From positions 1,110,001 through 1,142,000 of the forward strand of contig CAWJMG010000003.1 of assembly GCA_963843975.1 (NCBI GenBank): a stretch of DNA of 32,000 nucleotides, given 5' to 3'. The translations under genes were made by a program, and so were the position numbers. Source of the stretch: an uncultured Actinomycetes bacterium (GTDB lineage Bacteria; Actinomycetota; Actinomycetes; S36-B12; CAIYMF01). Shown one piece after another: positions 6,111 through 24,080 of this stretch (the stretch's first letter is position 1; each line of letters starts with the position of its first letter). The notes under the pieces were generated by a model, which was given only the letters and a program-made list of their open reading frames with translations, did no database searches and was not told the DNA's origin.

Positions 6111-6153
6111 CACCCCGCGGAGCACCGATCGGCAGGCGTGCGGGTCGGTGCGT

Positions 6154-7014
6154 TCAGCGCTGCCCGAGCTGGGCGGCCACGCGGGCGAGGCTCGCCGCAC
6201 GCTCGTCCACGCTGGGGTGCGTACGCCGGTCGAGCGGTCCGGCAGGCGACGCCTCCGCGAACGGCACCGCCATCACCAGCCGCAGGTCGGCGGGCCCGCT
6301 GCTCGCGCCCGTGCACGTGCGGACCGCGGCGTCGAGGTCACTCGGGCTGCCCGTGAGCAGCGCCGCAGCACGGTCGGCCGAGAGCTCGCGCTGGCGCATG
6401 AGGCTGCGAACCGCAGGGACGATCCACCCGGCGAGGAAGCCCACCTTGCGGTCGGCGAGCTCGGCGATCGCCTCGAGGCGGCTCGTCAGCGGAGCGTCGC
6501 CGTGCGCGATGTGGAACAGCTCGTGCGCCAGCATCGCGTCGAGCTCCGCGGGCGTGCATGTCTCCACGGCCGCCATCGTGACGCAGATCGCCTGCACGCG
6601 GTCGATCTCGACGACCACGTAGGAGTTGGGCCGCTCGGAGGCCACGATGCGCAGCGGCGGAGCGGGCACGTCGGCCAGGGCCGCGAGCCGTTCGAGGGCG
6701 ACGCGCAGCGGGTCGCCCGGCGGCACCTCGGCGATGTCACCCCGTCCGAGCGACGTGCCGCGCTCGGCTCGCCGCAGCTCGCCTAGCAGCCAGATCACCG
6801 CGATCGCGAACGGGACCACGAGCGCGAGTCCGTGCGTCGTCCCGATGACCTTGAACGCACCCCAGTGCCCGATCTTGGCGGCGAAGACGGTCACCACGAC
6901 CGTGAGCCCGAGGACGAGCAGGACGACGGCGCCGGCCACGGCGGCGACCGCGCGACGGGTCGCGCGCTCGAGCACGGGATCGTCGCCGTAGCGCCGAGCC
7001 GACCGGTCCGTCAT
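6154..7014 (-). CDS. M48-family zinc metallopeptidase, a divergent HtpX paralogue (286 aa)
   Basis: It has the HELFHIAHGD (HExxH) motif, two N-terminal TM helices, and RELSADRAAALLTG aligning with HtpX RELSADRTGALLTG. Its C-terminal AQLGQR is identical to that of HtpX at 7732-8640. Confidence 0.75.
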   Translation of the reverse strand: MTDRSARRYGDDPVLERATRRAVAAVAGAVVLLVLGLTVVVTVFAAKIGHWGAFKVIGTTHGLALVVPFAIAVIWLLGELRRAERGTSLGRGDIAEVPPGDPLRVALERLAALADVPAPPLRIVASERPNSYVVVEIDRVQAICVTMAAVETCTPAELDAMLAHELFHIAHGDAPLTSRLEAIAELADRKVGFLAGWIVPAVRSLMRQRELSADRAAALLTGSPSDLDAAVRTCTGASSGPADLRLVMAVPFAEASPAGPLDRRTHPSVDERAASLARVAAQLGQR

Positions 7015-7130
7015 GCCACGACGATACGTCCGGGTCCCCCGTTCGGCAGCGTCGAATCCGATCGCCCGTCAGGCCCGGGGGTCGGGCCCCGCGTGCGCCC
7101 GTCCTCGTGAGGGTCGGGGATACTCGAGCG

Positions 7131-7727
7131 GTGAAGCGCACCCTGCTCGTGGCCGTGCCGGTGTCGGCGTCCGCCCTGCTGCTGTCCGCCTGCGCCGCCA
7201 GCGCGTCCGACGGCGGCACCACGGCGTCGCCCGCCCCCACCGGGTCGGCGTCGTCCTCGGGCACGACCGTGGTGTCGGGTGAGCGCACCTACTCCGGGCT
7301 CGTGCAGGACCACGTCGACGGCGCGGTCGACTACCCGCAGTCCCCGCCTGTCGGCGGACCGCACAACCCGGTGTGGGTCGCCTGCGACGGCCGCGTGTAC
7401 GACGCCGCGATCCCGAACGAGAAGGCGGTGCACTCGCTCGAGCACGGCGCCGTATGGGTCACGTGGGCGCCGACGCTCGCACCGGCGGACGTGGAGAAGC
7501 TGCACGCGCTGATCGAGGGCGTGAACTACCGCCTCGGCTCGCCGTACCCAGGTCTCACGGCACCGGTCACCGTCACGGCGTGGGGCCACCAGATGGGCGC
7601 CGACAGCGTCGACGACCCCCGGATCGCGACCTTCCTGGACGCCTACACCAACGGACCGCAGACGCCGGAGCCCGGCGCCTCGTGCGCCGACCCGACCGGA
7701 GCCAGCCCGGACGTGCACTCGAGCTGA
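7131..7727 (+). CDS. DUF3105-like lipoprotein
   Basis: GTG at 7131 gives VKRTLLVAVPVSASALLLSAC, a lipobox (the track ORF starts at 7107). The core HSLEHGAVWVTW and AWGHQ resemble DUF3105 as I recall it. Confidence 0.65.
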   Translation: MKRTLLVAVPVSASALLLSACAASASDGGTTASPAPTGSASSSGTTVVSGERTYSGLVQDHVDGAVDYPQSPPVGGPHNPVWVACDGRVYDAAIPNEKAVHSLEHGAVWVTWAPTLAPADVEKLHALIEGVNYRLGSPYPGLTAPVTVTAWGHQMGADSVDDPRIATFLDAYTNGPQTPEPGASCADPTGASPDVHSS

Positions 7728-7731
7728 ACGG

Positions 7732-8640
7732 TCAGCGCTGGCCGAGCTGGGCGGAGACCTTCGCGAGCTCCTCGAGCCGCTTCTCGAGCGGCGGGTGGGT
7801 CATGAACAGCGTGGAGAGCGAGGCCTTGCTCGTGACGGCCGGGGCGAAGGCGAACGCCGACACCGCCTCCATCGAGCGCAGGTCGCGGTCCGGGATGGTG
7901 GCGATGTCGCCGGAGATCTTCACGAGGGCCGACGCGAGCGCGCTCGGCTTGCCCGTGAGCAGCGCGCCGGTGCGGTCGGCCGACAGCTCTCGGTAGCGCG
8001 ACAGCGCACGCGTGAGCAGGAACGACAGCACGTAGACGACGACCGAGACCAGGAAGACCACCATGAACATCAGCGCCGCGTTCTGGTCGCGGTTGTCGCG
8101 GCCCATGCCGCCCCACATGACCATGCGGGTGAGCAGACCGGCGACGACGCCGGCGAAGGACGCCACCGTCATCACCGTGACGTCGCGGTGGGCGATGTGC
8201 GAGAGCTCGTGCGACAGCACGCCCTCGAGCTCGTCGGCCTCGAGGCGGCGCAGGATCCCCGTGGTGACGCAGATGACCCCGCGGCTCGGAGTGCGGCCGG
8301 TGGCGAACGCGTTCGGGACGTCGGTGTCGGACACGGCGATGCGCGGCTTGGGCATGTCGGCCATGGCGCAGAGGCGATCGACCATGGCGTGCAGCTCGGG
8401 CGCCTCCTCCGGGGTGACGACGCGGGCGCGCATGGCGGCCAGCGCCATCGTGTCCGAGAAGTACCACTGCCCGAACAGCATGCCGCCGGAGATGATCAGC
8501 ACGAACGCGGTGCTCATGCCGAAGGAGATGAGCACGGCGGCGAGCGCGACGTAGAGAAGGCCCAGCCCGAAGGCCGTCCCGACCATGCGCCTCGTCAGGC
8601 CCTTGTCGCTGGCGTACCGCGTGGCGGCCACAGCCGTCAT
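7732..8640 (-). CDS. htpX: Zinc metalloprotease HtpX (M48B, 302 aa)
   Basis: ATG at 8640 follows CCAAGGAGG. It has four TM segments, the HELSHIAHRD motif and RELSADRTGALLTGKP. Confidence 0.9.
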   Translation of the reverse strand: MTAVAATRYASDKGLTRRMVGTAFGLGLLYVALAAVLISFGMSTAFVLIISGGMLFGQWYFSDTMALAAMRARVVTPEEAPELHAMVDRLCAMADMPKPRIAVSDTDVPNAFATGRTPSRGVICVTTGILRRLEADELEGVLSHELSHIAHRDVTVMTVASFAGVVAGLLTRMVMWGGMGRDNRDQNAALMFMVVFLVSVVVYVLSFLLTRALSRYRELSADRTGALLTGKPSALASALVKISGDIATIPDRDLRSMEAVSAFAFAPAVTSKASLSTLFMTHPPLEKRLEELAKVSAQLGQR

Positions 8641-8688
8641 CCTCCTTGGTCGTCGTGCGGGGACGTTCCTTGGTGATGGAACGCCGAC

Positions 8689-8713
8689 GGGCCGGGGAAG
8701 CGTTCCCCGGCCC
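8689..8713 (-). terminator. Perfect hairpin between the PspAA gene and htpX, a possible partial terminator or processing site
   Basis: gggccggggaa / gcg / ttccccggccc forms an 11-bp perfect stem with a 3-nt loop. There is no U-tract. Confidence 0.35.
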
Positions 8714-8733
8714 GGCAGACGTACAGGTGATTC

Positions 8734-9021
8734 TCAGCCGACCGGCTGGTCCGGCACGAGGCCTTCCTCGCTCAGCATCGCGCGGATGTCGTCCTCGCTC
8801 GCGTCGGCGAACGGCAGGATCACGTCGGACTCGCGGGCCTCGTGGTCCGGCGGGCGGACGCCCGTCGTGCGCACGAAGTCGAGCAGCGCGTCGAGCGCCG
8901 GCGTCACATCGGGCTGAGGCGTCTTGAGCGCTGCCTCCAGGGCGGCGTCGAGACGGTTGAGCTCGGTGAGCGCGGACTCGGGCATCTCGTACTGCCCCTC
9001 GCCCAGGATGCGGATGAGCAC
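8734..9021 (-). CDS. PspA-associated protein, PspAA-like (95 aa)
   Basis: MLIRILGEGQYEMPESALTELNRLDAALEAAL...ESDVILPFADASEDDIRAML matches my memory of the small acidic PspAA family. It lies 39 bp downstream of pspA. Confidence 0.65.
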   Translation of the reverse strand: MLIRILGEGQYEMPESALTELNRLDAALEAALKTPQPDVTPALDALLDFVRTTGVRPPDHEARESDVILPFADASEDDIRAMLSEEGLVPDQPVG

Positions 9022-9060
9022 GTGACTACCCCTCTCGGGACGTGACTGCGGGACGGTGGA

Positions 9061-9807
9061 TCAGGCCTGCGGCTTGTCGGCCGACTCGATGGCCGGAGCA
9101 GGGGCGGATCCGCTGATCTCGCCCTTCATCGCGGCGAGCTGCGCCTCGACGTCGTTGCCGCTGGCCATGCGCTCGAGCTCGAGGGTGATCGAGTCCTTGC
9201 TCGTGCCGGTCGGGTCGTCGAGAGCGCCGGACGCGAGCAGCTCGTCGATCGCCTGGCCGCGGGCCTGCAGCTGGGCGGTCTTGTCCTCGGCCCGCTGGAT
9301 AGCCATGCCGACGTCGCCGAGCTCCTCGCTGATGCCCGAGAAGGCCTCGTTGATCTTGGTCTGCGCCTCCGCTGCGGAGTACGTGGCCTTGATCGTCTCC
9401 TTCTTGGTGCGGAAGGCCTCGACCTTGGCCTGCAGTCGCTGGCTGGCCTGGACCAGCTTCTCCTCCTGGTCGGCGAGCGCGGCGTGCTGCGTCTGCAGGT
9501 CGGTGATCTGCGTGGCGAGCCCGGAGCGACGGGTGAGCGCCTCGCGGGCGAGGTCCTCGCGGCCGCCGGCGAGCGCGGCCTTGGCCTGCCCCTCGAGCTT
9601 GGTGCTCTGCTGCTCGAGCTGGGTGATCTGGAGCTCGAGGCGCTTGCGGCTCGTGGCCACGTCGGCCACGCCGCGGCGCACCTTCTGCAGCAGCTCGAGC
9701 TGCTTCTCGTAGGAGTAGTCCAGCGTCTCGCGCGGGTCCTCTGCCTTGTCCAGGGCCTTGTTCGCCTTGGACTTGAAGATCAGGGTGAAGCGCTGCCAGA
9801 GGCCCAT
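9061..9807 (-). CDS. pspA: PspA/IM30 (phage shock protein A) family protein (248 aa)
   Basis: ATG at 9807 follows GAGGAAGGGA. The N-terminus MGLWQRFTLIFKSKANKALDKAEDPRETLDYSYEKQLELLQKVRRGVADV is followed by long coiled-coil heptads. The extended 9975 start in the track is not supported. Confidence 0.9.
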   Translation of the reverse strand: MGLWQRFTLIFKSKANKALDKAEDPRETLDYSYEKQLELLQKVRRGVADVATSRKRLELQITQLEQQSTKLEGQAKAALAGGREDLAREALTRRSGLATQITDLQTQHAALADQEEKLVQASQRLQAKVEAFRTKKETIKATYSAAEAQTKINEAFSGISEELGDVGMAIQRAEDKTAQLQARGQAIDELLASGALDDPTGTSKDSITLELERMASGNDVEAQLAAMKGEISGSAPAPAIESADKPQA

Positions 9808-9855
9808 CGTGGGCGTCCCTTCCTCGTTGCGACGTCGAACGCGTCCTGCCGTGCC

Positions 9856-9881
9856 GACGTACGACGGCACCGCGGAGTTCC
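9856..9881 (-). promoter_or_regulatory. Candidate ECF-sigma (SigE-like) promoter for pspA
   Basis: The minus strand reads GGAACT-N16-CGTC, with the AAC in the -35 and the CGT in the -10 typical of ECF promoters. It ends 48 nt upstream of the pspA ATG. The call rests on motif only. Confidence 0.3.
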
Positions 9882-12924: not shown

Positions 12925-14313
12925 TCAGGCCGCGGCCGCCACCAGCGAGCCGCTGTACATGCCCATGACGCACGCGAAGTCGTAGCGCTCCCCGGCCGCG
13001 AGGGCGGGGAGCTCGACGACGTTGGCGCCGGTCCGCAGGTTGGCCTTCCACTCCCAGCTCACCCCGCGCAGGTACGCCGCGCAGCTGAGGTCGGACACCG
13101 AGGTGATCTCCCAGCGGATCGGCAGACCGGGCTTCACCACCGTGGTCTGCGGCACGTAGCCGCGGGTGGTCTGCTCCATCGTCACCGTCTGGGTCGTCGC
13201 GCCGACGCTGACGTTTCCGGTGATCGCCGTCGGCACCTCGGTGGCCCGCTGGGTCCAGCCGAGGAGCGCTGCGGCGCCGCCGGCGTTGACCAGGGCGAAC
13301 GCCACGAGCACGGCGCCGGTGATCGCGAGCACCTGCTGCCGCACCGCGGCCGAGCCGATCCGCGGGAGCCCCGCCACGGCGAGCAGGCCGGGCGCGGTGC
13401 CGATCGCGAACACCGCCATGGTGATCCCCGCGGTGAGCGCCGAGCCGGTGGTCATGGCGTAGAGCTGCATGGCCTGGGTGAAGCCGCAGGGCAGGAAGAA
13501 CGTCAGCGCTCCGAGGGCGGCCGTGCGGGCGTCGGAGTACGGCCCTGAGGAGCGCTGCTCGACGCCGAGCGCGCGGGCGAGCGACGGCGGCAGCGACGGC
13601 GACCACGCGGCGAGACGGGGAGACACCCGCAGCAGCCGGATGCCGAGCACGGCCATCACGAGCGCCACGGCGAGCGTCAGCACCGCCTGCGCCTTCTCCG
13701 GCAGGCCGATCTGGGCGCCGATCGCTCCGAGGGCGGCTCCCAGGAGGGCGAAGCCGACGATCCGGCCCGCATGGAACACCAGATGCGGCCGCAGCGATCC
13801 CGGGCGCGGCCGGCCGTCCTCGTACCCGACGGCCGCGGCGTGCGAGGCGGACACCGCGAGCACGAGACCGCCCACCAGGGCCATGCAGGTCGAGACGCCG
13901 GCCGCCAGGCCGACGAGCAGCACGACGAGCAGGCTCCCGGACGACGTCGAGGCAGAGCCCGAGAGCAGGTCGGGCAGGCCGAAGAAGGCGACGAGCACCG
14001 CGCCGACAGCCACGACGGCGGCTGCCACGAGCGCCTCGCGCCACACCGTGACGTCCGGGCTCACCCACGGCTCACGGCCCACGCGGTAGCCGGCCCCGGC
14101 GACGGCAGCTTCGACGGACCGGTCCAGCACGGGACGGTCGACGTCGTCCGCGACGATCAGTGAGGCCTCGCCGCGGCGCACCGAGACGACGGCGGACTCC
14201 ACGCCCGGCACCTTCGTCAGCGCCTTGGACACCCGGGTCTCGCACGCGCGGCAGGTCATGCCGGCGACGGGGACACGCACCTCGTGCATCCCGGTCGTCG
14301 TCGGTCGTGCCAT
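12925..14313 (-). CDS. Three-domain metal-handling membrane protein with an N-terminal HMA domain, a TauE/DsbD_2-like polytopic core and a C-terminal cupredoxin-like domain
   Basis: ATG at 14313 sits 7 nt after GGAGG. It has the GMTCRACETRV metal-binding motif, about 6 TM helices with FFLPCGFTQAM, and a C-terminal FACVMGMYSG. Confidence 0.7.
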   Translation of the reverse strand: MARPTTTGMHEVRVPVAGMTCRACETRVSKALTKVPGVESAVVSVRRGEASLIVADDVDRPVLDRSVEAAVAGAGYRVGREPWVSPDVTVWREALVAAAVVAVGAVLVAFFGLPDLLSGSASTSSGSLLVVLLVGLAAGVSTCMALVGGLVLAVSASHAAAVGYEDGRPRPGSLRPHLVFHAGRIVGFALLGAALGAIGAQIGLPEKAQAVLTLAVALVMAVLGIRLLRVSPRLAAWSPSLPPSLARALGVEQRSSGPYSDARTAALGALTFFLPCGFTQAMQLYAMTTGSALTAGITMAVFAIGTAPGLLAVAGLPRIGSAAVRQQVLAITGAVLVAFALVNAGGAAALLGWTQRATEVPTAITGNVSVGATTQTVTMEQTTRGYVPQTTVVKPGLPIRWEITSVSDLSCAAYLRGVSWEWKANLRTGANVVELPALAAGERYDFACVMGMYSGSLVAAAA

Positions 14314-14489
14314 GCCGTCACCTCCGCCAGCGCTGATCGTCACGGTCATCATCGGCGTCCCGGGCAGCGAACGCGAGAGATCCCGCTGCGAGCGGCCGGT
14401 GTCGTCCGACACGCCCGGCGGGGCACCCACCTGGGGCGATGCGACGACCTTTGACTCCGGGCACCGGCGCGTGGTCAGGTACAGGGGCC

Positions 14490-14630
14490 CCCTACCGTGG
14501 GGGTCACAACTGAACACCCGCGCCTGACGTCCAGGGGAAGCCGGTCCGAATCCGGCGCTGAACCCGCAACCGTAGGTGGTCGACCCGTTGAGGACGGGAA
14601 CGACTGCGAGCCGGAGCACCTGGCGGGCGC
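14490..14630 (+). promoter_or_regulatory. Cobalamin (B12) riboswitch aptamer. The 5' boundary is approximate.
   Basis: The conserved core AGGGGAAGCCGGTCCGAATCCGGCGCTGAACCCGCAACCGTAGG lies at 14533-14576. The B12 box GAGCCGGAGCACCTGGC lies at 14608-14624. The element sits in a roughly 490-bp gene-free region upstream of a corrinoid salvage operon. Confidence 0.8.
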
Positions 14631-14697
14631 GAGATCGGCTCACATCCGTCGAGGTCTACGGAACGAGCCCGGACCGTCCCCCTGGTCCGACCTCTCG

Positions 14698-14741
14698 CCC
14701 CTCGCGCCCGGTCCTCACGGACCACGGCTCGAGGGGTTTTT
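14698..14741 (+). terminator. Riboswitch expression platform: an intrinsic terminator (attenuator)
   Basis: The outer stem cccctcg (14698-14704) pairs with cgagggg (14730-14736), and an inner stem ggtcc/ggacc closes a tcac loop. It is followed by TTTTT (14737-14741). The left arm 14701-14710 (ctcgcgcccg) is perfectly complementary to 14624-14633 (cgggcgcgag) at the 3' edge of the B12 box, giving an antiterminator option. Confidence 0.65.
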
Positions 14742-14801
14742 CGTCGTACGGGGAGCAGTCCGGACCACTTGGTTCGTGCCCGCTCCACCGAAAGGACCCC
14801 C

Positions 14802-16190
14802 GTGGTCACCGTCCCCTCCGGGCGCCCGCCCGCTGCTCGTCGTGCCATCGCCGGCCTCCTGGCCGCCACCGCGCTCCTGGCCTCCGCCGCGCTCGCCGCG
14901 CCGTCGGCCTCGGCCGCCACCGCCCCCGTGCAGGTCGGCCTGTTCGGCACGCAGGACCCGACGTACGACGGCGTCTTCCGCCAGTCGCTGGCCCTGCTCG
15001 CCTTCGCGGCCGCCGACCAGGCGCCGCCCGAGGAGTCGGTCGCCTGGCTGCTCGACCAGCAGTGCGCGGACGGCGGCTTCCAGGCGTTCCGCGAGGACAC
15101 GACCAAGCCGTGCACGAAGTCCGACCCCGCGAACTTCGTCGGCGAGGACTCGAACTCCACGGCGCTGGCGTCCGCGGCGCTCACGGTGCTGGGCGAGCTC
15201 GACGCCGCCGACGGCGCTCTCGCCTGGCTCGAGGGTGCGCAGAACTCCGACGGCGGCTTCCCCTACTTCCTCGGCGGCACGTCCGACGTGAACTCCACTG
15301 CCATCGCGCTGATGGCGACCAACGCCGTCGGGCTGGCCCCCACCCAGGTGACCTCCGGCGGCGTCTCGGCCGCCGACTACCTCGTCGGCCTGCAGGTCGG
15401 CTGTCCGGGCGTGCCCACGAACGAGGACGGCGGATTCGCCTACGCCGACTTCTCCGCCGGCACCGCGAACGACGCGGCCACGGTGCAGGCGGCGCTCGCC
15501 ATCACCGGAGCTGCGCTCCCGTTCGTCGCGGACGCCCCGTCGCTCGACATCCCCCGCGTGGACTGCCCCGCACCGACCGTGACGCCCACCGCGCCCGCGG
15601 TCGCCGGTGCCGCCGCTCCGGCGGCGGCGCTGCCCGTGACCCCGGCCGAGCTGGCGGGCGGCTACATCGCGCGCACGCTCGAGACCTACGGCAACGCCAT
15701 CCCCCAGCTCGACTTCACCACGGGAGAGCGCAAGCCCGGCACCGTCTCGGCCGGCGACACCGCGTGGGCCGTGCTCGCCCTGTCGGCGATCGGAGTCGGC
15801 GGCACCCAGCGCGACGCCGCCCTCGACGTGCTGCTCGCCGAGGTCGGTACCGCCCCGGCGGCCAAGACCGCCGCGAAGGCCGTCTCGGACGAGGCGCCCG
15901 GGCTGCTCTCGCTCGCCGCGCTCGCGGTCGTGTCGGCCGACGGCAAGCCGGCGACCGCGGCCGACCTCGTCGCGAGGGTCGGCGCGACGATGCGCACGGC
16001 TCCCGCCTCGGTGACGCCGACACCGACGCCCACGACCGGCACGCCGACCCCGTCCGGCACGAGCGACGGCGGCCTCGCGCCCTCGGGCGCCTCGCCGCTC
16101 ACGCCCGGCCTCGCAGGTGCCGGTGCGCTCCTGCTCCTCCTCGGGTCCGTGGCGCTCGGGCTGACCCGCCGCCAGGGCAGCCACTCGTGA
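14802..16190 (+). CDS. Cell-surface prenyltransferase/squalene-cyclase-repeat (alpha/alpha toroid) protein with a C-terminal sorting-type anchor (462 aa)
   Basis: GTG at 14802 sits 5 nt after AAAGGA. The signal peptide contains RR (AARRAIAGLLAATALLASAALAAPSASA). It has three Q/N-xx-DGGF repeats (QQCADGGFQAF, AQNSDGGFPYF, TNEDGGFAYADF) and a T/P linker. The C-terminus is LAPSG plus a hydrophobic stretch plus RRQGSHS. Confidence 0.75.
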   Translation: MVTVPSGRPPAARRAIAGLLAATALLASAALAAPSASAATAPVQVGLFGTQDPTYDGVFRQSLALLAFAAADQAPPEESVAWLLDQQCADGGFQAFREDTTKPCTKSDPANFVGEDSNSTALASAALTVLGELDAADGALAWLEGAQNSDGGFPYFLGGTSDVNSTAIALMATNAVGLAPTQVTSGGVSAADYLVGLQVGCPGVPTNEDGGFAYADFSAGTANDAATVQAALAITGAALPFVADAPSLDIPRVDCPAPTVTPTAPAVAGAAAPAAALPVTPAELAGGYIARTLETYGNAIPQLDFTTGERKPGTVSAGDTAWAVLALSAIGVGGTQRDAALDVLLAEVGTAPAAKTAAKAVSDEAPGLLSLAALAVVSADGKPATAADLVARVGATMRTAPASVTPTPTPTTGTPTPSGTSDGGLAPSGASPLTPGLAGAGALLLLLGSVALGLTRRQGSHS

Positions 16191-17125
16191 CCGACGCACG
16201 CCGGGGGACGGCGGCCGCACGTGCGGCCGCCGTCCTCGGCGTGCTCGGGTCCGTCCTCGTCGCGTTGCTCGTCGCGGCCCCGGCCGCCGAGGCCGCGTCG
16301 TACCGCTACTGGACCTACTGGTGGGGGCAGCCCGCCGCCACCTCCTGGACCTTCGCCCAGCTCGGCCCCGCGAGCGACCGCCCGAAGGACGGCGCGGTGC
16401 TCGGCTGGAGGTTCGCCGTCACGACCGAGGCGGGCGGCAAGAAGTCGCCGCGCGCGTCGCTGCCGTTCGACTCCCTCTGCCCGTCGCTCGCCGGGACACC
16501 TGCCGGCGCGGGCGAGAAGCGCGTCGCGGTCGTCGTCGACTACGGCACGGCGTCCGACGCTCCCCCGGGCGAGGCGCCTCCGGGCGGAGGCACCGTGCGC
16601 GTCGAGTGCGTGACGGTCGCCGCCAACGCCACCGGCGTCGCCCTCCTCAACGCGGCCGGCGTCTCGCTGCGGTTCGGCGACAACGGGCTCGTGTGCGGGA
16701 TCGACCGCTATCCGCGCACCGAGTGCGCGGCGGTCGTGGCCGACCCGACGCCGTCCCCGAAACCCACCACGGCCGCCCCCAAGCCCCAGCCCAGCACCGC
16801 CCGACCGACCGCGTCGGCGACCGGTGGCGGCAGCGTCGCCAGCAGCGCGGCGGCGGGAACGGCCTCAGCCGGTGAGCAGTCGTCGTCGGCCGCGACCACC
16901 GGGAGCAGCAGCGCCGTCCCCGAGGCGACGACGGCGTCGCCTGCGCCCTCGACGTCGGTCGACCCGACGACCGAGGTGCCGCTCCCGGTCAGCTCCGGGG
17001 CCCCCGTGGCCTCGGGCACCGAGGGCGGTTCCGGCGGCAGCCCCATGGCGCCGGTCGTCGGGGTCGCGCTCGTCGCCGCCGTCGGCATCGGAGCCTGGTG
17101 GACAGCGCGCGGGAGGCGGGCATGA
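16187..17125 (+). CDS. Stalked, membrane-anchored extracytoplasmic protein (312 aa), reminiscent of the SCO2322-type family that accompanies such ECF operons
   Basis: The GTG at 16187 overlaps the upstream stop (GTGA). It has a signal peptide ending AAEA|AS and a roughly 150-aa domain (YRYWTYWWGQ, DGAVLGWRF, GLVCGIDRYP, 4 Cys). A roughly 100-aa S/T/P/A stalk follows, then a C-terminal TM plus RGRRA. Confidence 0.7.
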   Translation: MTDARRGTAAARAAAVLGVLGSVLVALLVAAPAAEAASYRYWTYWWGQPAATSWTFAQLGPASDRPKDGAVLGWRFAVTTEAGGKKSPRASLPFDSLCPSLAGTPAGAGEKRVAVVVDYGTASDAPPGEAPPGGGTVRVECVTVAANATGVALLNAAGVSLRFGDNGLVCGIDRYPRTECAAVVADPTPSPKPTTAAPKPQPSTARPTASATGGGSVASSAAAGTASAGEQSSSAATTGSSSAVPEATTASPAPSTSVDPTTEVPLPVSSGAPVASGTEGGSGGSPMAPVVGVALVAAVGIGAWWTARGRRA

Positions 17126-18279
17126 GCCGCACCGCGCACGCCCTCGGCAGCCGCGCGCTCCCGCGCTGGACCCACCCCGTCGCCTGGTGGGTCTGGGCCC
17201 TCGGGCTCGCCACCGCCGTCAGCCGCACCACCAACCCGCTGCTGCTCGCACTGATCGTCGCGGTGGCCGGCTGGGTCGTGGCCCGTCGTCGCCCCGACGC
17301 GCCCTGGGCCAGGTCGTACGCGGTCTTCCTCCGGCTCGGCCTCGTGGTGATCGCGATCCGCGTGGCGTTCGCGGTGGTGCTCGGCTCGGGCGCCGGTACG
17401 ACCGTGCTCCTGCAGCTGCCCGAGATCCCGCTCCCCGACTGGTTCGCCGGCGTGAGCCTCGGCGGCCCGGTCACCCTCGAGGAGCTGCTCGCCGCCGTCT
17501 ACCAGGGCATGGTGCTCGCCGCGCTGCTCGCCTGCGTCGGCGCTGCGAACTCGCTGGCGAGCCCCGCCCGGCTACTCGCGTCGGTGCCGGCCGCGCTCTA
17601 CGAGGTGGGCGTCGCCGTCGTCGTCGCCATGACCTTCGCCCCGCAGCTCGTTCAGGACGTCGGCCGCGTGCGCACGGCTCGGCGCCTGCGCGGTCGGCCG
17701 GACCGCGGCGCCCGCGCGCTCGCGGGGTCGGTGCTGCCGGTGCTCGAGGGTGCGCTCGAGCGGGCGGTGGACCTCGCCGCGGCGATGGACTCGCGCGGCT
17801 ACGGCCGTACGGGCGCTCAGTCGCCCGCCCTGCGACGTACGTCGGCCGCACTCCTGCTGCTGGGCCTGCTCGGCATGTGCCTCGGCGTCTACGCGCTGCT
17901 CGACACGGGCACGGCCGGTGCTCTCGGCCTGCCGCTGCTCGTGCTCGGCGTGGCCGCCGGGACGATCGGCGTGCTGCTCGCGGGCCGGCGCTCGATCCGC
18001 ACGCGCTACCGCCCCGACCCGTTCGCGCTGCCCGAGTGGATCGTCGCGGGCACCGGGGTGCTCGTCGCCGTCGTCGTGGTCGCCGTCTCGATCACCGACC
18101 CCGCCGTCCTCGTCGGCCCGGTGGCGCCGCCGGCCTGGCCGGCCCTCCCCCTGCTGCCGGTCGCAGCGATCCTGCTCGCCGCCCTGCCGGGTCTCGTCAC
18201 GCCCCCGCCCCCCGGCATGATGACCGTCCAGCCCGTCCCGGCTCGTCGGGACCGCGAGCCCGAGGGGGTGGCCGCGTGA
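17122..18279 (+). CDS. ECF transporter transmembrane (T) component, CbiQ/EcfT family, with an extra C-terminal TM region (385 aa)
   Basis: The ATG at 17122 overlaps the upstream stop (ATGA), with GGGAGG upstream. The coupling-helix Arg-Gly motifs RTARRLRG and AMDSRGYG are present. There are about 3 additional TM helices after residue 270. Confidence 0.8.
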   Translation: MSRTAHALGSRALPRWTHPVAWWVWALGLATAVSRTTNPLLLALIVAVAGWVVARRRPDAPWARSYAVFLRLGLVVIAIRVAFAVVLGSGAGTTVLLQLPEIPLPDWFAGVSLGGPVTLEELLAAVYQGMVLAALLACVGAANSLASPARLLASVPAALYEVGVAVVVAMTFAPQLVQDVGRVRTARRLRGRPDRGARALAGSVLPVLEGALERAVDLAAAMDSRGYGRTGAQSPALRRTSAALLLLGLLGMCLGVYALLDTGTAGALGLPLLVLGVAAGTIGVLLAGRRSIRTRYRPDPFALPEWIVAGTGVLVAVVVVAVSITDPAVLVGPVAPPAWPALPLLPVAAILLAALPGLVTPPPPGMMTVQPVPARRDREPEGVAA

Positions 18280-19907
18280 TCCGCTTCGACGACGTCACCG
18301 TCACCTACGACGGCTCCCCCGCACCGGTGCTGAGCCACGTCGACCTCCACATTCCCGAGGGCGAGCTCGTCCTCGTCGTCGGTCGCACGGGCACCGGCAA
18401 GTCGACGCTCCTGCGCTGCGTCAACGGCCTGGTGCCGCACTTCACCGGCGGCACCCTGCGCGGCCGCGTCACCGTGGCCGGCCGCGACACGCGCACGCAC
18501 CCGCCCCGCGAGCTCGCCGACGTCGTGGGCGTCGTGCCGCAGGACCCGCTCAGCGGCTTCGTCACCGACATCGTCGAGGACGAGCTCGCCTACGGCATGG
18601 AGTCGATCGGCCTCGCACCGGACGTCATGCGTCGCCGGGTCGAGGAGACGCTCGACCTGCTCGGCCTCAACGACCTGCGCAACCGCGCGCTGCGCTCGCT
18701 GTCCGGCGGGCAGCGCCAGCGGGTGGCGATCGGCGCCGTCCTCACCACGCACCCGAAGGTGCTCGTGCTCGACGAGCCCACATCGGCCCTCGATCCCGGT
18801 GCGGCAGAAGAGGTCCTGGCCGCGCTGCAGCGGCTCGTGCACGATCTCGGCGTCACCGTGCTGCTCGCCGAGCACCGGCTCGAGCGGGTCGTGCAGTACG
18901 CCGACCGCGTCATCGTCGTCCCCGGCGGAGGCGAGCCCCTCGTCGTCGGCACGCCCGCCGAGGTGATGGTGACGGCTCCCGTCGCTCCCCCGGTGGTGGA
19001 GCTCGGGCGCCTCGCCGGGTGGTCGCCGCTGCCGCTGTCCGTGCGCGACGCCCGCCGCGCCGCCGGTCCTTTGCGCGAGCGGCTGCAGCCGCTCGTCGAG
19101 GACGCCGTCCTGCGCTCGCGCTCCTCGCTGCACGTCCTGTCCGGCACGCCGGCGGTATCCGCGCTCGACGTCGTCGTGCGCCACGGCTCGGTGGCCGCGC
19201 TCCGCGGTGTCACGGTGGCCGCGGACAAGGGCGAGATCGTCGCCGTCATGGGGCGCAACGGCGCCGGCAAGTCGACGCTGCTCTCGACCTTCGTCGGCCT
19301 CCACTCCCCCGCCGCCGGGTCGGCGACCGTGGGCGGTGCGACCTCCGCGGCCCTGCGCGGTCGAGAGCTCGTGACACGCGTGGGACTGGTGCCGCAGGAG
19401 CCCACCGACGTGCTGGTGGCCGACCGGGTGGGCGACGAGTGCGCGGCCGCCGACCGCGACTCCGGCGTCGCGCCCGGCACGGCCCGCGCGATCCTCGACC
19501 GGGTCGCACCGGGCGTGGACGACGACACGCACCCGCGCGACCTCAGCGAGGGGCAGCGCCTCGCCCTCGCCCTCGCCGTCGTCCTCGCCGCCCACCCGCC
19601 CGTGCTGCTGCTCGACGAGCCGACGCGCGGCCTGGACTACGCCGCGAAGCGGCGGCTCGTCGCCGTCCTGCGCGAGCTGGCTGCCGACGGGCACTGCGTG
19701 ATCCTCGCGACGCACGACGTCGAGCTCGCGGCAGAGGTGGCGACGCGCGTCGTCGTCCTCGCGGAGGGCGAGGTCGTCGCGGACGGCCCGGCCACCGAGG
19801 TCGTCGTGGGGTCGCCGATGTTCGCCCCGCAGGTGAGCAAGGTGCTCGCACCGCAGCCCTGGCTCACGGTGGCAGAGGTCGCCGCCGCACTGGTAGCGGC
19901 GTCGTGA
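18276..19907 (+). CDS. ECF transporter ATPase, a fused tandem A-A' protein (543 aa)
   Basis: The GTG at 18276 overlaps the upstream stop (GTGA). The first ABC cassette has GRTGTGKST / LSGGQRQRV / VLVLDEPTSALD. The second has GRNGAGKST / LSEGQRLAL / VLLLDEPTRGLD. Confidence 0.9.
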   Translation: MIRFDDVTVTYDGSPAPVLSHVDLHIPEGELVLVVGRTGTGKSTLLRCVNGLVPHFTGGTLRGRVTVAGRDTRTHPPRELADVVGVVPQDPLSGFVTDIVEDELAYGMESIGLAPDVMRRRVEETLDLLGLNDLRNRALRSLSGGQRQRVAIGAVLTTHPKVLVLDEPTSALDPGAAEEVLAALQRLVHDLGVTVLLAEHRLERVVQYADRVIVVPGGGEPLVVGTPAEVMVTAPVAPPVVELGRLAGWSPLPLSVRDARRAAGPLRERLQPLVEDAVLRSRSSLHVLSGTPAVSALDVVVRHGSVAALRGVTVAADKGEIVAVMGRNGAGKSTLLSTFVGLHSPAAGSATVGGATSAALRGRELVTRVGLVPQEPTDVLVADRVGDECAAADRDSGVAPGTARAILDRVAPGVDDDTHPRDLSEGQRLALALAVVLAAHPPVLLLDEPTRGLDYAAKRRLVAVLRELAADGHCVILATHDVELAAEVATRVVVLAEGEVVADGPATEVVVGSPMFAPQVSKVLAPQPWLTVAEVAAALVAAS

Positions 19908-20776
19908 CCGCCACCGCGCTGCCGCCGGCAGCGAACGGCACGGTCGACGTCTACGTCGTCCGCTCGGGGCGCCCCAGCGCCGTGCGCGTCGGCCGCCGCT
20001 CGCTCGTCGCGATGATCCTCGCGAGCGCCGTCGGCCTGCTCGCCTTCGCCTGGCCGCTCATGGCCCCCGCGGGGTCGGCGATCGTGGCGCACGCGGCCGA
20101 TGCCCCGTGGCTGTTCGCGGCGATGCTGCCGCTGGTCCTCGCCGTCGTCCTGGCCGAGGTGGCCGACGGCGGGCTCGACGCCAAGGGCGTCGCCCTGCTC
20201 GGCGTGCTCTCCGCCGTCGCGGCAGCCCTGCGGCCGTTCGGCAGCGGGCACGCGGGGTTCGAGCCCATGTGGATCGTGCTGGTGCTCGGTGGCCGCGCGC
20301 TCGGCCCCGGCTTCGGCTTCTGCCTCGGCTCGGTCGGCATGTTCGCCTCGGCCATGGTCACCGGCGGCGTGGGCCCGTGGCTGCCGTTCCAGATGGTCGG
20401 CGCCGCGTGGGTCGGCGTGGGTGCCGGCCTGCTTCCGCGCGCGACCGGCCGACGCGAGCTCGGACTGCTCGCCGGCTATGCGGCCTTCGCCTCGCTCGCC
20501 TACGGATTCCTGCTCAACCTGTGGTTCTGGCCGTTCATCACGGCCGACCAGGGCTTCGCCCCCGGCCTGTCGTACGTTCCCGGCGCACCGGTGCTCGAGA
20601 ACCTGCAGCACTGGATCCTGTTCAGCCTCGCCACCTCGCTCGGCTACGACATCCCGCGCGCCGTGCTCACCGTGGTGCTCGTGCTCGTCGCGGGGCGGCC
20701 GGTGCTCACCGCGCTGCGGCGAGCGTCGAGACGGGCCGCGTTCGAGGTGCCGGTTCGGTTCGAGGACGCCCGCTGA
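19904..20776 (+). CDS. ECF transporter substrate-capture (S) component, unusually large (290 aa). The substrate is inferred to be a corrinoid.
   Basis: The GTG at 19904 overlaps the upstream stop (GTGA). The protein is polytopic and Gly/Ala/Leu-rich with about 7-8 hydrophobic segments. It lacks the CbiM-type MHIxEG N-terminus. Its position completes a dedicated T-A-S set. Confidence 0.65.
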   Translation: MTATALPPAANGTVDVYVVRSGRPSAVRVGRRSLVAMILASAVGLLAFAWPLMAPAGSAIVAHAADAPWLFAAMLPLVLAVVLAEVADGGLDAKGVALLGVLSAVAAALRPFGSGHAGFEPMWIVLVLGGRALGPGFGFCLGSVGMFASAMVTGGVGPWLPFQMVGAAWVGVGAGLLPRATGRRELGLLAGYAAFASLAYGFLLNLWFWPFITADQGFAPGLSYVPGAPVLENLQHWILFSLATSLGYDIPRAVLTVVLVLVAGRPVLTALRRASRRAAFEVPVRFEDAR

Positions 20777-22188
20777 TGCAGGTGCTGATGCTCGGCACCG
20801 GCGCGGCCGACGGATGGCCGAACCCCTTCTGCACGTGCGCCTCCTGCGACTGGGCACGATCGACGGGCACCGTCCGCACCACGACCTCCGCGCTCGTCGA
20901 CGACGCACTGCTGCTCGACTGCGGACCCGACGCACCGCGCCAGGCCTCCCGCGCCGGGCGCAGCCTCGAGCAGCTGCGCGCGGTGCTCGTGACGCACGCG
21001 CACCCCGACCACCTCGATCCGTCCGCACTGCTCGCGCGCTCGTGGGCGCGACCGGCGTCGGCGCTGCAGGTCGTCGGCCCGCGCTCGGTCATGGCCGCGT
21101 GCGAGCACTGGATCGGTCCGGACGACTCCGTGGCGCTCACCGAGGTGTCGCCCGGCGACGTCCTCACGATCGACGGGTACGTCGTGCGCGTGCTCGCGGC
21201 CGCGCACGACGTCGGCCACGACCCCCTGACGGCCGACGCGGTGCTGTACGACGTCACCGCGCCCGACGGTGCGCGCCTGCTCTACGCGACCGACACCGGG
21301 CCGCTCCCGCAGGAGACCGTGGACGTGCTGCACGGCGCGGCGCTCGACCTGCTGCTCGTCGAGGAGACGTTCGGCGCCCAGGCCGACCACGGCACGGGCC
21401 ACCTCGACCTCGCGACCCTGCCGCGCGAGCTGGCTCGGCTGCGCGAGTGCGGTGCGCTCACCGGCACGACCGACGTCGTCGCCGTCCACCTGAGCCACCA
21501 CAACCCGCCGGGCCCCGAGCTCGCGCGCGTGCTGGCGCCCTGGGGAGTCCGTGTGGTCGACGACCTCGCCGAGCTGCGGGTCGGGCCGTCGGAGTCGGTG
21601 TCGCGCCCCACGACGCCGCGACGGACGCTGCTGCTGGGAGGCGCACGCTCGGGCAAGTCGCACGAGGCCGAGCGGATGCTCGCGGCCACCGCCGATGTCG
21701 AGTACGTCGCCACCGGCGGCGCCCGCGACGGCGACGCGGAGTGGGCCGAGCGCGTCGCCCTGCACCGCGCCCGTCGACCGGCCACGTGGTCGACCGTCGA
21801 GACGCTGGACGTCGCGAAGCTGCTGCAGTCGCCCGGCCCGTCGGCGGTGCTCGTCGACTGCCTCTCCCTGTGGCTCGCGGGCGTGCTCGACTCCGCCGGC
21901 ATGTGGGAGCACGCCGCAGGCTCCCCGGGCCGAGGCGAGGCGCTGTCACATGTCGACGTCGAGGTCGCTGCCCTGGTCGACGCCGTCCGGCGCACGTCGC
22001 GCACGGTCGTGCTGGTCTCCAACGAGGTCGGTAGCGGCGTCGTGCCGGAGCACGAGTCGGGCCGGCTCTACCGCGACCTGCTCGGCCGCCTCAACGCCCG
22101 CGTCGCCGCCGAGTGCGACGCTGTGTCCCTCGTCGTCGCAGGCACCGTCCTGCCCCTCACGCCCGGAAGCAGCGCAGCAGCACCGTGA
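20776..22188 (+). CDS. cobU: Fusion of a PhnP-like metallo-beta-lactamase-fold phosphodiesterase domain with adenosylcobinamide kinase / adenosylcobinamide-phosphate guanylyltransferase (CobU/CobP), 470 aa
   Basis: The N-terminal domain has LGTGAADGWPNPFCTCASCDWAR (the Cys cluster seen in E. coli PhnP), VLVTHAHPDHLD (HxHxDH), YATDTG, GHLDL and AVHLSHH. The C-terminal domain has LLLGGARSGKSHEAE (P-loop), LVDCLSLWL and VSNEVGSGVVPEHESGRLYRDLLGRLN. Confidence 0.8.
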   Translation: MQVLMLGTGAADGWPNPFCTCASCDWARSTGTVRTTTSALVDDALLLDCGPDAPRQASRAGRSLEQLRAVLVTHAHPDHLDPSALLARSWARPASALQVVGPRSVMAACEHWIGPDDSVALTEVSPGDVLTIDGYVVRVLAAAHDVGHDPLTADAVLYDVTAPDGARLLYATDTGPLPQETVDVLHGAALDLLLVEETFGAQADHGTGHLDLATLPRELARLRECGALTGTTDVVAVHLSHHNPPGPELARVLAPWGVRVVDDLAELRVGPSESVSRPTTPRRTLLLGGARSGKSHEAERMLAATADVEYVATGGARDGDAEWAERVALHRARRPATWSTVETLDVAKLLQSPGPSAVLVDCLSLWLAGVLDSAGMWEHAAGSPGRGEALSHVDVEVAALVDAVRRTSRTVVLVSNEVGSGVVPEHESGRLYRDLLGRLNARVAAECDAVSLVVAGTVLPLTPGSSAAAP

Positions 22189-23271
22189 CCCTCGACCTCG
22201 ACGCCCTCGTCGCCCGCATCGAGCTGCCGGACGACGACGCCCGCGCCGCGGCAGCGGAGCGGCAGACGCGGCTCACCAAGCCGACCGGGGCGCTCGGGCG
22301 GCTCGAGGAGCCTCTCCCTGTGGCTGTGCGCGGTGCAGGGCGTGTGCCCGCCGCGGCCGCTCGAGCGCGTGCGCGTGATCGTCCTGGCCGGCGACCACGG
22401 CGTCGCCCGCACTGCCGCCACGAGCGCGTACCCGCCCGAGGTCACCGCGCAGATGGTGCTCAACTTCCTCGCCGGCGGCGCCGCCGTGAACGTGCTCGCG
22501 CGGCAGAACGGCGCGACCGTCCGCGTCGTCGACGTCGCGGTCGACGTCGACTGGGCCGAGCTCGGCGCGACGGTGCCCGAGGACGTCGTGCGCGACAAGG
22601 TACGGCGCGGCAGCGGCTCGATCGACCGCGAGGACGCGATGACGCGCGAGGAGACGGAGGCGGCGTTCGCGCTCGGCGTCCGCATCGCCGACGAGGAGGT
22701 CGATGCCGGCGCCGACCTCCTCATCCCCGGCGACATGGGCATCGGCAACACGACGCCAGCCGCCGTCATCACCGGGCTGTACACGAACCAGGACGCCGCG
22801 TCCGTCGTCGGGCGCGGCACCGGGATCGACGACGCGACGTGGATGCGCAAGACCGCGGCGGTCCGCGACGCGATGCGTCGCGGCCGCGACGCCAAGGGCG
22901 ACCCGATCGCCCTGCTGGCGACCGTCGGCGGCGCCGACATCGCCGCCATGACCGGCCTGCTCATCGGCGCAGCCGCCCGGCGGACACCCGTGCTGCTCGA
23001 CGGCGTCGTGTCGTGCGCAGCCGCGCTGGTGGCGCAGCGGATGTCGTTCCGCGCGCGGGAGTGGTGGCTCGCCGGCCACCTGTCGACCGAGCCGTCCGCG
23101 AAGGCCGCGCTCGAGCGCCTGCGGCTCGACCCGCTCGTCGACTACGGCCTGCGCCTCGGTGAGGGCACCGGCGCCCTGATCGCGCTGCCGGTCCTGGCCG
23201 CCGCCGGCGCGACGCTCCGCGAGATGGCGACCTTCGACGAGGCCGGCGTCTCGGACAGGGAGCAGCCCTGA
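22185..23271 (+). pseudogene. cobT: Nicotinate-nucleotide--dimethylbenzimidazole phosphoribosyltransferase CobT. The frame is disrupted by one extra base at about 22311 as sequenced.
   Basis: The GTG at 22185 overlaps the cobU stop (GTGA). The first frame gives [42 protein letters not shown]. The next frame continues [16 protein letters not shown]...VLAGDHGV...GDMGIGNTT...LRLGEGTGA to the stop at 23271. The repaired length is 361 aa, as for Rv2207. Confidence 0.85.
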
Positions 23272-24080
23272 TGCCCGACTTCGTGCGCCTCGCGCTCGGC
23301 ACGTTCACGATCCTGCCGGTGCCGCCGCCGCGCACAGTGGACCGCACGACGGCGCGACGGGCGATGCTCCTCGCGCCGTTCGTCGGAGCCCTGCTCGCGA
23401 TGGTCGCCGCCGGCGTCATCCTGTTCGTCCGGCTCTCGCCGCTCGGCCACCGCACGCACATCGTCGTGACGCTCGTGGCCGCCACGCTCGCGATCGTCAC
23501 GCTCGCGGTCCTCACCCGCGGCCTCCACCTCGACGGCCTCGCGGACACCGCCGACGCGCTCGGGGTGAAGGGCGACGACGACGGCGCGCGGGAGCGCCGG
23601 CTCGCGGTGATGCGCACCCCGGAGATCGGGGCGTTCGGCGCCGTCACGCTGATCCTGGTGCTGATCGTCCAGATCCTCGCCCTCACCGCGTGCGACCTCG
23701 CCGGCCGCGGCACGGTCAGCCTGGTCACGGCCTGCGTGGTCGGCCGCCTCGCGGTGGTGTGGGCCTGCACCCGGCTCGCGCCGTCCGCCCGGCCCGACGG
23801 CCTCGGGGCCACGGTCGCCGGCACCGTGCCGGTGGTGGCCGCCGCGCTGCTCACCGTCGCCGCCGGGCTGCTCGCGGTGTGGCTCGGCCTCGGCGACGAC
23901 GACGGCGGCCGCCGGCTCGCTGCCGCGCTCGTGATCGCGACGATCGGCGGCCTCGCGGTCGGCGCCCTGGTCGTGCTCCGCGCCGTACGCCGGTTCGGCG
24001 GCATCACCGGCGACGTCCTCGGCGCCACGGTCGAGCTCACCTTCACCGCCGTCCTGCTGGCGCTCGCCCTGCTCCCCTGA
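23271..24080 (+). CDS. cobS: Adenosylcobinamide-GDP ribazoletransferase (cobalamin synthase) CobS
   Basis: The ATG overlaps the cobT stop (TGATG). It is a polytopic protein with the LHLDGLADTADAL motif. Confidence 0.85.
   Translation: MPDFVRLALGTFTILPVPPPRTVDRTTARRAMLLAPFVGALLAMVAAGVILFVRLSPLGHRTHIVVTLVAATLAIVTLAVLTRGLHLDGLADTADALGVKGDDDGARERRLAVMRTPEIGAFGAVTLILVLIVQILALTACDLAGRGTVSLVTACVVGRLAVVWACTRLAPSARPDGLGATVAGTVPVVAAALLTVAAGLLAVWLGLGDDDGGRRLAAALVIATIGGLAVGALVVLRAVRRFGGITGDVLGATVELTFTAVLLALALLP

Follow-up and report, generated by a model that had tools for sequence, protein, structure and literature searches.

A PhnP-like metallo-beta-lactamase domain fused to CobU in Actinomycetota, and its possible role in corrinoid salvage

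The fused gene

We analysed a window of 32,000 nucleotides from an uncultured Actinomycetes bacterium (GenBank assembly GCA_963843975.1, contig CAWJMG010000003.1, positions 1,110,001 to 1,142,000 of the forward strand), in which a single gene, here called MBL-CobU, joins a metallo-beta-lactamase (MBL) domain similar to the phosphodiesterase PhnP to CobU, the adenosylcobinamide kinase / adenosylcobinamide-phosphate guanylyltransferase. By window we mean this whole stretch, and all positions are counted from its first letter. Judging from its sequence, the gene product is perhaps a two-domain enzyme of corrinoid salvage, a description that we put forward tentatively. The gene and its parts are the following.

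20776-22188, + strand: MBL-CobU gene, open for 470 codons, with a product of 470 amino acids
20776..21579, + strand: PhnP-family MBL phosphodiesterase domain, residues 1-268
21580..21621, + strand: variable inter-domain linker, residues 269-282
21622..22188, + strand: CobU domain (adenosylcobinamide kinase / adenosylcobinamide-phosphate guanylyltransferase), residues 283-470

The G+C content of the window is about 74%, and the G+C fraction at third codon positions is 0.91-0.94 along the whole length of the open reading frame (ORF). The start ATG and the stop codon of the preceding gene, which encodes the S component of an energy-coupling factor (ECF) transporter, overlap (TGATG), and a GAGGA is found 9 nt upstream. 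Two domains were recognised by Pfam in the 470-residue protein, namely Lactamase_B_2 (residues 45-214, E 2e-19) and CobU (residues 284-460, E 4e-51). The AlphaFold model of the full protein, for which 23 homologues were given as input, has a mean pLDDT (predicted local distance difference test) of 85.7 and consists of two folded domains separated by a low-confidence linker. Precisely, in residues 269-282 the pLDDT falls to 54, and both the length and the sequence of this segment vary among the 23 aligned fused homologues.

An initial annotation, made from the sequence, had described the gene as a fusion of a PhnP-like MBL domain with CobU and had assigned the MBL fold to roughly 270 N-terminal residues. 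Pfam, a sequence search against the PDB and the fold matches described below agree with it on both points, with the first domain covering residues 1-268. In databases the protein is called simply CobU ("bifunctional cobinamide kinase/guanylyltransferase"), and the MBL half is not mentioned.

The N-terminal domain

The closest solved relative of residues 1-275 by sequence was E. coli PhnP (3g1p), with E 6e-7 in a single-sequence search and E 2e-25, over the full length, in a family-profile search. In these searches PhnP was the best match, and PqqB and the structure 6b9v were weaker ones. The same picture was obtained at the level of the fold: in a Foldseek search with the AlphaFold model, PhnP (3g1p, TM-target 0.81) and 6b9v (a "PhnP-family diphosphatase", TM-target 0.80) were the best-covered targets, above RNase Z and YhfI.

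The landmarks of PhnP that the initial annotation had listed (a GTG..G.P stretch with a Cys cluster, THxHxDH, D-T-G, xHxDL and H.SH) were all found, as G7-T8-G9..G13.P15....C19.C21..C24..A27-R28, T73-H74-A-H76-P-D78-H79, D173-T174-G175, H209-L-D211-L and H238-L-S-H241. In the HMMER alignment to PhnP, C19, C21, C24 and H241 correspond to C21, C23, C26 and H225 of PhnP, the residues H74, H76, D78 and H79 fall on its HxHxDH motif, and H144, D173, H209 and H238 correspond to H143, D164, H200 and H222, respectively. In PhnP we take the Cys3-His set to be a structural zinc site, the His/Asp set to be the ligands of the dimetal centre and His200 to be the general acid. The predicted sites of the present domain are hence a zinc site formed by C19, C21, C24 and H241, a binuclear metal site with seven ligands (H74, H76, D78, H79, H144, D173 and H238) and the general acid H209, and all these residues are invariant in the 23 fused homologues. 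Since all the ligand, zinc-site and general-acid positions of PhnP are present and invariant, the domain looks catalytically competent, as a binuclear metallo-phosphodiesterase of the PhnP type. It has the fold, the HxHxDH motif and the downstream His/Asp/His of the metallo-beta-lactamase superfamily and, in addition, the CxCxxC motif, the late zinc-site His and the general-acid His of the PhnP-like clade.

We considered, and rejected, the possibility that the domain is a true orthologue of PhnP: it scored 45-47 bits with TIGR03307, whose equivalog cut-off is 272 bits, and it has no phn genes nearby. In fact, no phn (carbon-phosphorus lyase, C-P lyase) gene was found in the 32-kb window or detected in the related loci examined. 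Pfam gave no match in the MBL-CobU protein to AP_endonuc_2 (the fold of CbiR), to His_Phos_1 or PgpA-like domains (the folds of CobC and CobZ) or to the CbiZ amidohydrolase domain. These results and the fold comparison bear out the earlier proposal that the domain is not orthologous to CbiZ, CbiR or CobC.

The C-terminal CobU domain

Over residues 283-462 the C-terminal domain is, as far as its sequence allows it to be judged, a complete, ordinary and functional-looking CobU. The Pfam model CobU (PF02283) matched with 173 bits against a cut-off of 27, and NF004469, run on the isolated domain, with 162.8 bits against a cut-off of 161. The P-loop GGARSGKS occupies residues 288-295 (G288-S295), and in the alignment to 7tm8 and 1c9k H330 falls on the second His of the enteric "QHH", which makes it the equivalent of the guanylylated His46. 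The domain therefore has a family model above cut-off, a P-loop and a guanylyl-accepting His, as expected for the CobU/CobP family. Foldseek matched it to CobU structures with TM-target values of 0.80-0.88.

Distribution of the fusion

The fusion is real, old and widespread in Actinomycetota. More than 100 full-length protein clusters, with 50-93% identity, carry both domains, Rhodococcus proteins among them. In a genome scan that took one genome per species, at least 590 loci encoded a relative of the query; 80 loci were kept, and the fusion is present in 71 of these 80. Its carriers among the kept loci are Nanopelagicales, Prescottella, Mycolicibacter, Frankia, Cumulibacter, Nocardioidaceae, Acidothermaceae and Streptomycetaceae, so that the survey found it across many orders of the phylum. 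The closest of the kept loci belongs to a "Candidatus Nanopelagicales" metagenome-assembled genome (MAG), with 65% protein identity. We compared 22 loci of the intact type, in which the MBL half proved to be conserved like the CobU half (median identity 53% vs 53%), and every catalytic residue is invariant in the window protein and in all 22.

An artefact of a lost stop codon or of assembly, absent from relatives, had been named at the outset as what would undo the case for the fusion. We rejected it, given the occurrence of the fusion in the protein clusters and loci just counted. The two apparently unfused close relatives, P0121 and P0122, stem from assemblies rich in errors, with many fragmented genes. 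A further protein, P0073 (763 amino acids, from a JGI isolate contig of 3.37 Mb), appears to be a triple fusion of an ECF S component, the MBL domain and CobU. Its junction, "RRASRRGCVRCTGPVRRGPARPAG...", resembles an out-of-frame read-through of the end of the S gene, and we regard this form as probably a frameshift artefact and not as a tethered importer-enzyme.

The degenerate form in Streptomycetaceae

In Streptomycetaceae (Streptomyces, Kitasatospora and relatives) the fused protein is shorter, with about 400 residues, and was counted in 49 loci (within L024-L078; for example L027:10001-11209). Its N-terminal domain, of about 215 residues, retains the CxCxxC and HxxH motifs, that is the Cys3-His zinc site, and is without HxHxDH (which now reads "SHPHD--G"), H144, D173 (in "YLPPG") and the H209 segment. 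With respect to the window protein it is 35% identical in the N-terminal domain and 59% in the CobU part. In a rough neighbour-joining (NJ) tree the Streptomycetaceae forms nest within the fused clade on a long branch. CobU, CobT and CobS are kept in these organisms despite the loss of the MBL catalytic residues. In none of these 49 loci is the fusion directly preceded by an ECF S component gene, and no importer is adjacent.

Judged by sequence, the CobU of this form is intact and carries a conserved domain that has become a pseudo-enzyme. Since the catalytic residues were lost while CobU, CobT and CobS remained, the reaction of the domain would be dispensable for building the nucleotide loop as such. 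The decayed domain is still kept in 49 loci, hence a non-catalytic role of the fold must exist there.

The operon in the window

MBL-CobU is the sixth of eight co-directional genes that follow a cobalamin riboswitch, as listed here.

14508..14641, + strand: cobalamin riboswitch aptamer RF00174, heading the operon (35 bits, gathering score 31.5, E 1.7e-5)
14769 (or 14928)..16190, + strand: gene 1, SCO2321-family surface protein (NF053823 SCO2321_fam, E 2e-55, below cut-off)
16187..17125, + strand: gene 2, SCO2322-family secreted, membrane-anchored protein (NF040672, 146.8 bits, cut-off 85)
17098 (or ATG 17122)..18279, + strand: gene 3, ECF T component of the CbiQ/EcfT family (Pfam CbiQ, E 2.5e-6)
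18276..19907, + strand: gene 4, ECF duplicated ATPase, an A-A' fusion (two ABC_tran domains, E 6e-54)
19904..20776, + strand: gene 5, ECF S component (Pfam ECF_trnsprt, E 6.8e-9)
20776..22188, + strand: gene 6, MBL-CobU (Lactamase_B_2 and CobU)
22185..23271, + strand: gene 7, cobT, nicotinate mononucleotide:5,6-dimethylbenzimidazole (DMB) phosphoribosyltransferase (Pfam DBI_PRT, E 4e-114; TIGR03160, 366 bits against 319)
23271..24080, + strand: gene 8, cobS, adenosylcobinamide-GDP ribazoletransferase, at the end of the operon (Pfam CobS, E 1.5e-44)

Stops and starts of these genes overlap, and on this sequence evidence the eight genes are a single, translationally coupled operon. The GTG start of gene 2 overlaps the preceding stop (GTGA), the alternative ATG of the T component at 17122 also overlaps the stop before it, the ATPase gene has a GTGA overlap with its predecessor, and the start of cobS overlaps the stop of cobT (TGATG). 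A riboswitch is thus combined with coupled transport and nucleotide-loop genes, which is what characterises a salvage operon regulated by a B12 riboswitch. RF00174 was found upstream of the homologous operon also in L003, L021 and L086 (33-34 bits). Being under the control of this riboswitch, MBL-CobU should be made only when adenosylcobalamin is scarce. The gene for the ECF S component lies directly 5' of the fusion in 6 of the 17 intact-type loci with enough flank.

In the SCO2321-family protein a signal peptide is followed by an alpha/alpha-toroid-like domain, a Pro/Thr linker and, at the C-terminus, the sorting signal LAPSG, by which it would be anchored through sortase; it gave a match to an LAETG-type sorting motif and weak ones to SQHop_cyclase and Prenyltrans. 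A PDB sequence search gave marginal squalene-cyclase repeats only; a transcobalamin-like fold was sought in a single-sequence AlphaFold model, which had a pLDDT of 37 and was not used. The SCO2322-family protein has a signal peptide and a C-terminal hydrophobic anchor. Among the transporter components, the T component is 49-78% identical in homologous operons, the best NCBIfam matches of the ATPase (ECF_ATPase_1/2) are both just below cut-off, and the S component matched no curated NCBIfam family. The substrate of this ECF importer would presumably be a corrinoid, and the two surface proteins together with the T, AA' and S components (14508-20776) may form an undescribed actinobacterial system of corrinoid capture and import.

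CobC is the sole nucleotide-loop enzyme absent from the operon. The initial annotation had seen no candidate for it in the window, and our Pfam search agrees: none of the ORFs of the 32-kb window is of the CobC (His_Phos_1), CbiZ or CbiR type.

A few observations concern the neighbouring sequence. The cobT gene starts with GTG at 22185 (GTGA overlap with the stop of MBL-CobU), loses its frame at about 22313 (GAGGAG-C-CTCTCC) and continues in frame over 22333-23271; L001, L003 and L086 read "GRLEDLSLWLC" in one frame. The one-base insertion is, from the sequence, either a sequencing error or the mark of a very recent pseudogene. Divergent from the riboswitch lies a gene for a membrane protein with HMA and DsbD_2 domains (12925-14517, - strand), found at the same position in L001 and L086. 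The gene order of the window is that of actinobacterial loci (DUF3043, aldo-keto reductase, cobU-cobT-cobS, gcvT, pepA, lpd, sucB). A phage-shock-like envelope stress cluster (5496-9870, - strand), unrelated to the operon, comprises PspA/IM30 (9061-9870), PspAA (8734-9021), PspAB (5496-6125) and two M48 peptidases (6154-7014 and 7732-8640, - strand).

Stand-alone orthologues and distant relatives

Stand-alone orthologues of the MBL domain, with 45-57% identity, were examined in nine distinct contexts (L069 and L088 were counted as one), and the catalytic residues are intact in all nine copies checked. In the rough NJ tree stand-alone and fused forms are interspersed, so that the domain can presumably work when not attached to CobU.

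Four of the nine contexts are linked to B12. In L092 (a MAG, L092:2881-6084) a sub-threshold cobalamin riboswitch of 29.9 bits is followed by a SCO2321-like gene, SCO2322 and the stand-alone MBL gene, at a locus that lacks ECF genes as well as cobU, cobT and cobS; given this reduced operon, the MBL domain and the two surface proteins may form a functional core. L093 has an ECF S gene, then the MBL gene and then a separate cobU, and in L094 the stand-alone MBL gene adjoins cobT and cobS. In L062 (a Dietzia MAG, L062:6611-10825) it comes last among the genes of a BtuFCD-type importer and overlaps the stop of the ATPase gene; for this importer the best NCBIfam matches were BtuC and a corrinoid ATPase, both below cut-off. 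About 255 additional residues, without a Pfam match, are present at the N-terminus of its substrate-binding protein.

In Nocardioidaceae-like genomes (L069:9377-14521, L088:8001-12511 and L084:1934-5751) the MBL gene adjoins a pair of exporter-type ABC (ATP-binding cassette) half-transporters, and in L069 a gluconokinase gene as well. The pairing of a P-loop kinase with an MBL domain as a recurrent theme was considered and found unsupported: the kinase beside the L069 MBL gene is this gluconokinase, and the apparent AAA_33-MBL fusion P0393 has only about 88 kinase-like N-terminal residues.

More distant stand-alone relatives (28-35% identity) occur in Chloroflexota and Clostridia. They belong to no curated NCBIfam family, and their PhnP label at JGI was given by similarity only; with TIGR03307 the stand-alone relatives scored 39-65 bits (cut-off 272). 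With no curated family and with unrelated contexts, we considered these distant relatives uninformative about function.

Proposed function

The genomic context of the MBL domain points to B12, and the domain probably is catalytic, with a corrinoid-related function of some kind. As for the reaction, we tentatively propose that the domain cleaves, as a phosphodiesterase, the nucleotide loop of cobamides that have been imported, and that the fused CobU receives the cobinamide or cobinamide-phosphate; this may be so, and we hold it with some reserve. Corrinoids, among them complete cobamides whose lower ligand is unsuitable, would enter through the ECF system. The metal-bridged hydroxide of the MBL domain would then attack the phosphodiester between the aminopropanol arm and the 3'-O of the alpha-riboside, releasing the old nucleoside and cobinamide-phosphate or, if the other P-O bond were cut, cobinamide and alpha-riboside 3'-phosphate. 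The tethered CobU would turn this product into cobinamide-GDP, using its kinase activity first if needed, and CobS would join cobinamide-GDP to the alpha-ribazole-phosphate made by CobT. Overall, the domain would act as CbiR does, on an unrelated fold.

What the reaction would release is what the fused CobU takes as its substrate, and this gives loop opening a support of the Rosetta-stone kind. The remodelling reading is also the more economical one, because it explains the fusion partner, the link with uptake, the riboswitch and the decay tolerated in Streptomycetaceae, where the loss of catalysis without an adjacent importer fits a dispensable salvage function. A wider claim, of which we are still less confident, is that the domain represents an MBL-fold class of cobamide remodelling, the fourth after CbiZ, CbiR and CobS, with direct hand-over to CobU and placed downstream of an undescribed SCO2321/SCO2322/ECF capture-import system under a B12 riboswitch.

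Several facts weigh against the proposal of loop opening. Five of the nine stand-alone contexts are without B12 genes (L023, L069/L088, L079, L091 and L095), and the intact fusion of Prescottella and Mycolicibacter has no B12 gene clustered with it. Riboswitch searches were empty in L062, L069, L088 and L091, and likewise in L023, L079, L004, L009 and L010. The relatives in Chloroflexota and Clostridia stand in unrelated contexts (hut, phosphotransferase system (PTS) and others). The established substrate of PhnP is a small cyclic ribosyl phosphate, and the substrates that enter the argument, that of the domain entirely and that of the ECF importer as well, are ones that we infer.

Two roles had been offered in the initial annotation, the cleavage of the loop of imported cobamides and the supply of the missing CobC-type phosphatase, and on the sequence evidence the former fits better. 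As a non-orthologous replacement of CobC, the domain would remove the 5'-phosphate from adenosylcobalamin-5'-phosphate or alpha-ribazole-phosphate in the last step. We consider this unlikely, even if the operon, under its B12 riboswitch, has CobU, CobT and CobS and lacks only this enzyme, in a 32-kb window without a His_Phos_1 gene. The deposition of the PhnP-family 6b9v as a "diphosphatase" suggests that the chemistry of the family goes beyond cyclic diesters. What decides for us is that the whole diesterase apparatus of PhnP is kept, including the general-acid His, and that Streptomycetaceae lost the catalytic residues and kept CobU, CobT and CobS, a decay not to be expected of an indispensable last step of the CobC type unless another phosphatase serves. 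Histidine phosphatases similar to CobC are indeed present elsewhere in actinobacteria (of the Rv2228c type, for example). Moreover, PhnP is reportedly without monoesterase activity, and the steps of CobU and CobC are not consecutive.

An equally improbable alternative, in our judgement, is a general PhnP-like (cyclic) phosphodiesterase that acts on a small, non-corrinoid ribosyl or nucleotide phosphodiester, with the fusion to CobU as a lineage-specific accident or as a matter of co-expression only. The hut, PTS and other contexts of the distant relatives speak for it, and so do the close stand-alone orthologues without B12 neighbours (L069/L088, with gluconokinase and two ABC exporters, L079, L091 and L095) and the interspersion of stand-alone with fused forms in the tree. 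It is difficult to see, however, how the fusion would then be kept across many orders of Actinomycetota with both halves equally constrained, why a B12 riboswitch (the sub-threshold one of L092) precedes even a stand-alone copy, and why four independent stand-alone contexts hold cob genes or corrinoid-type transport genes. The B12 context would be equally well accounted for by a pyrophosphatase or phosphodiesterase that tidies or redirects the pathway by acting on a side product or intermediate of the loop, the candidate substrates being alpha-DMB-adenine dinucleotide (from CobT and NAD+), cobinamide-GDP and alpha-riboside 2',3'-cyclic phosphate. Cyclic phosphates and, if one goes by the title of 6b9v, diphosphates are within the chemistry of the PhnP family, and we know of no enzyme assigned to the conversion of alpha-DMB-adenine dinucleotide to alpha-ribazole-phosphate. 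A role linked to CobT, though, predicts fusion or adjacency to CobT and not to CobU, and the hydrolysis of cobinamide-GDP beside its maker would be futile, so that we give this scheme little credence, whichever of the three substrates is taken. Least probable of all is that the domain serves CobU mainly in a structural or regulatory way (oligomerisation, binding of corrinoid or metal, docking to the importer) and that catalysis is irrelevant. The 49 Streptomycetaceae loci, which keep a domain of about 215 residues with its zinc site and without HxHxDH, H144, D173 and H209, are what such a role would look like; in the window protein and the 22 intact-type loci, instead, the catalytic residues are invariant and the domain evolves as slowly as CobU, and stand-alone copies of the catalytic type exist.

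To our knowledge, many genomes have no gene assigned to the phosphatase of the last step. An intact, strongly conserved phosphodiesterase domain is attached to CobU in a large part of Actinomycetota, with Rhodococcus/Prescottella, Mycolicibacter, Frankia, Nocardioidaceae and Nanopelagicales among its carriers. Should the domain indeed open the loops of cobamides, a phylum abundant in soil and freshwater could remodel cobamides, and predictions of who uses which B12 analogue in microbial communities would change. Such an enzyme would, besides, exemplify the passing of a substrate from a degradative active site to a biosynthetic one in the same polypeptide chain. The decayed version of Streptomycetaceae is a natural pseudo-enzyme control.

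Comparison with known systems

CobZ is PgpA-like and has no homology to the MBL domain. The same lack of homology holds for CobC, the alpha-ribazole-phosphate / cobalamin-5'-phosphate phosphatase, which belongs to the histidine phosphatase superfamily. Both are monoesterases, whereas the PhnP machinery is that of a diesterase; their step is absent from the operon, and the domain could in principle fill it.

PqqB and 6b9v belong to the same PhnP-like MBL clade with an N-terminal Cys cluster and are weaker matches (E 3e-10 and E 3e-17, respectively). PqqB is a hydroxylase, which warns that the clade is not limited to hydrolysis.

The nearest solved relative in sequence and fold is E. coli PhnP (3g1p, 3p2u), the 5-phospho-alpha-D-ribosyl 1,2-cyclic phosphate phosphodiesterase. 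The Cys-x-Cys-x-x-Cys...His zinc site, the seven dimetal ligands and the general-acid His are common to both, and PhnP acts on an alpha-ribosyl phosphate ester, as the MBL domain would too. PhnP differs in that it is only about 23% identical and stands in a C-P lyase context, while the MBL domain has CobU as its fusion partner and is under a B12 riboswitch.

As for the other half of the protein, the C-terminal 190 residues are 33-36% identical to CobU/CobP of Salmonella (1cbu/1c9k) and Klebsiella (7tm8), with the P-loop and the His46 equivalent in common. The matched CobU/CobP structures are single-domain proteins of about 160-200 residues, to which the present protein adds an N-terminal catalytic domain of 268 residues.

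The demonstrated cobamide phosphodiesterase is CbiR of Akkermansia muciniphila (Amuc_1679), which converts a cobamide to cobinamide-phosphate and alpha-riboside, and whose genes adjoin cobamide genes (80%) and transporters (25%) (PMC7733943). The reaction we propose for the MBL domain would be the same, and both lie beside nucleotide-loop genes and transporters. The fold of CbiR is, however, an AP-endonuclease-2 / xylose-isomerase-like TIM barrel, without sequence similarity to the present MBL domain, and its activity is demonstrated where that of the MBL domain is deduced. CbiZ, the adenosylcobinamide / pseudocobalamin amidohydrolase of salvage and remodelling, often adjoins corrinoid transporter genes (PMC7733943); it cuts an amide bond and not a phosphodiester, has an unrelated fold, and does not occur in the window.

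A review of February 2026 lists as cobamide remodelling activities CbiZ, CbiR and certain CobS only, and our full-text literature searches returned no report on an MBL domain fused to CobU. Compared with these systems, the fold and the chemistry of the domain are of a known kind, and the fusion, its context and the probable substrate are new.

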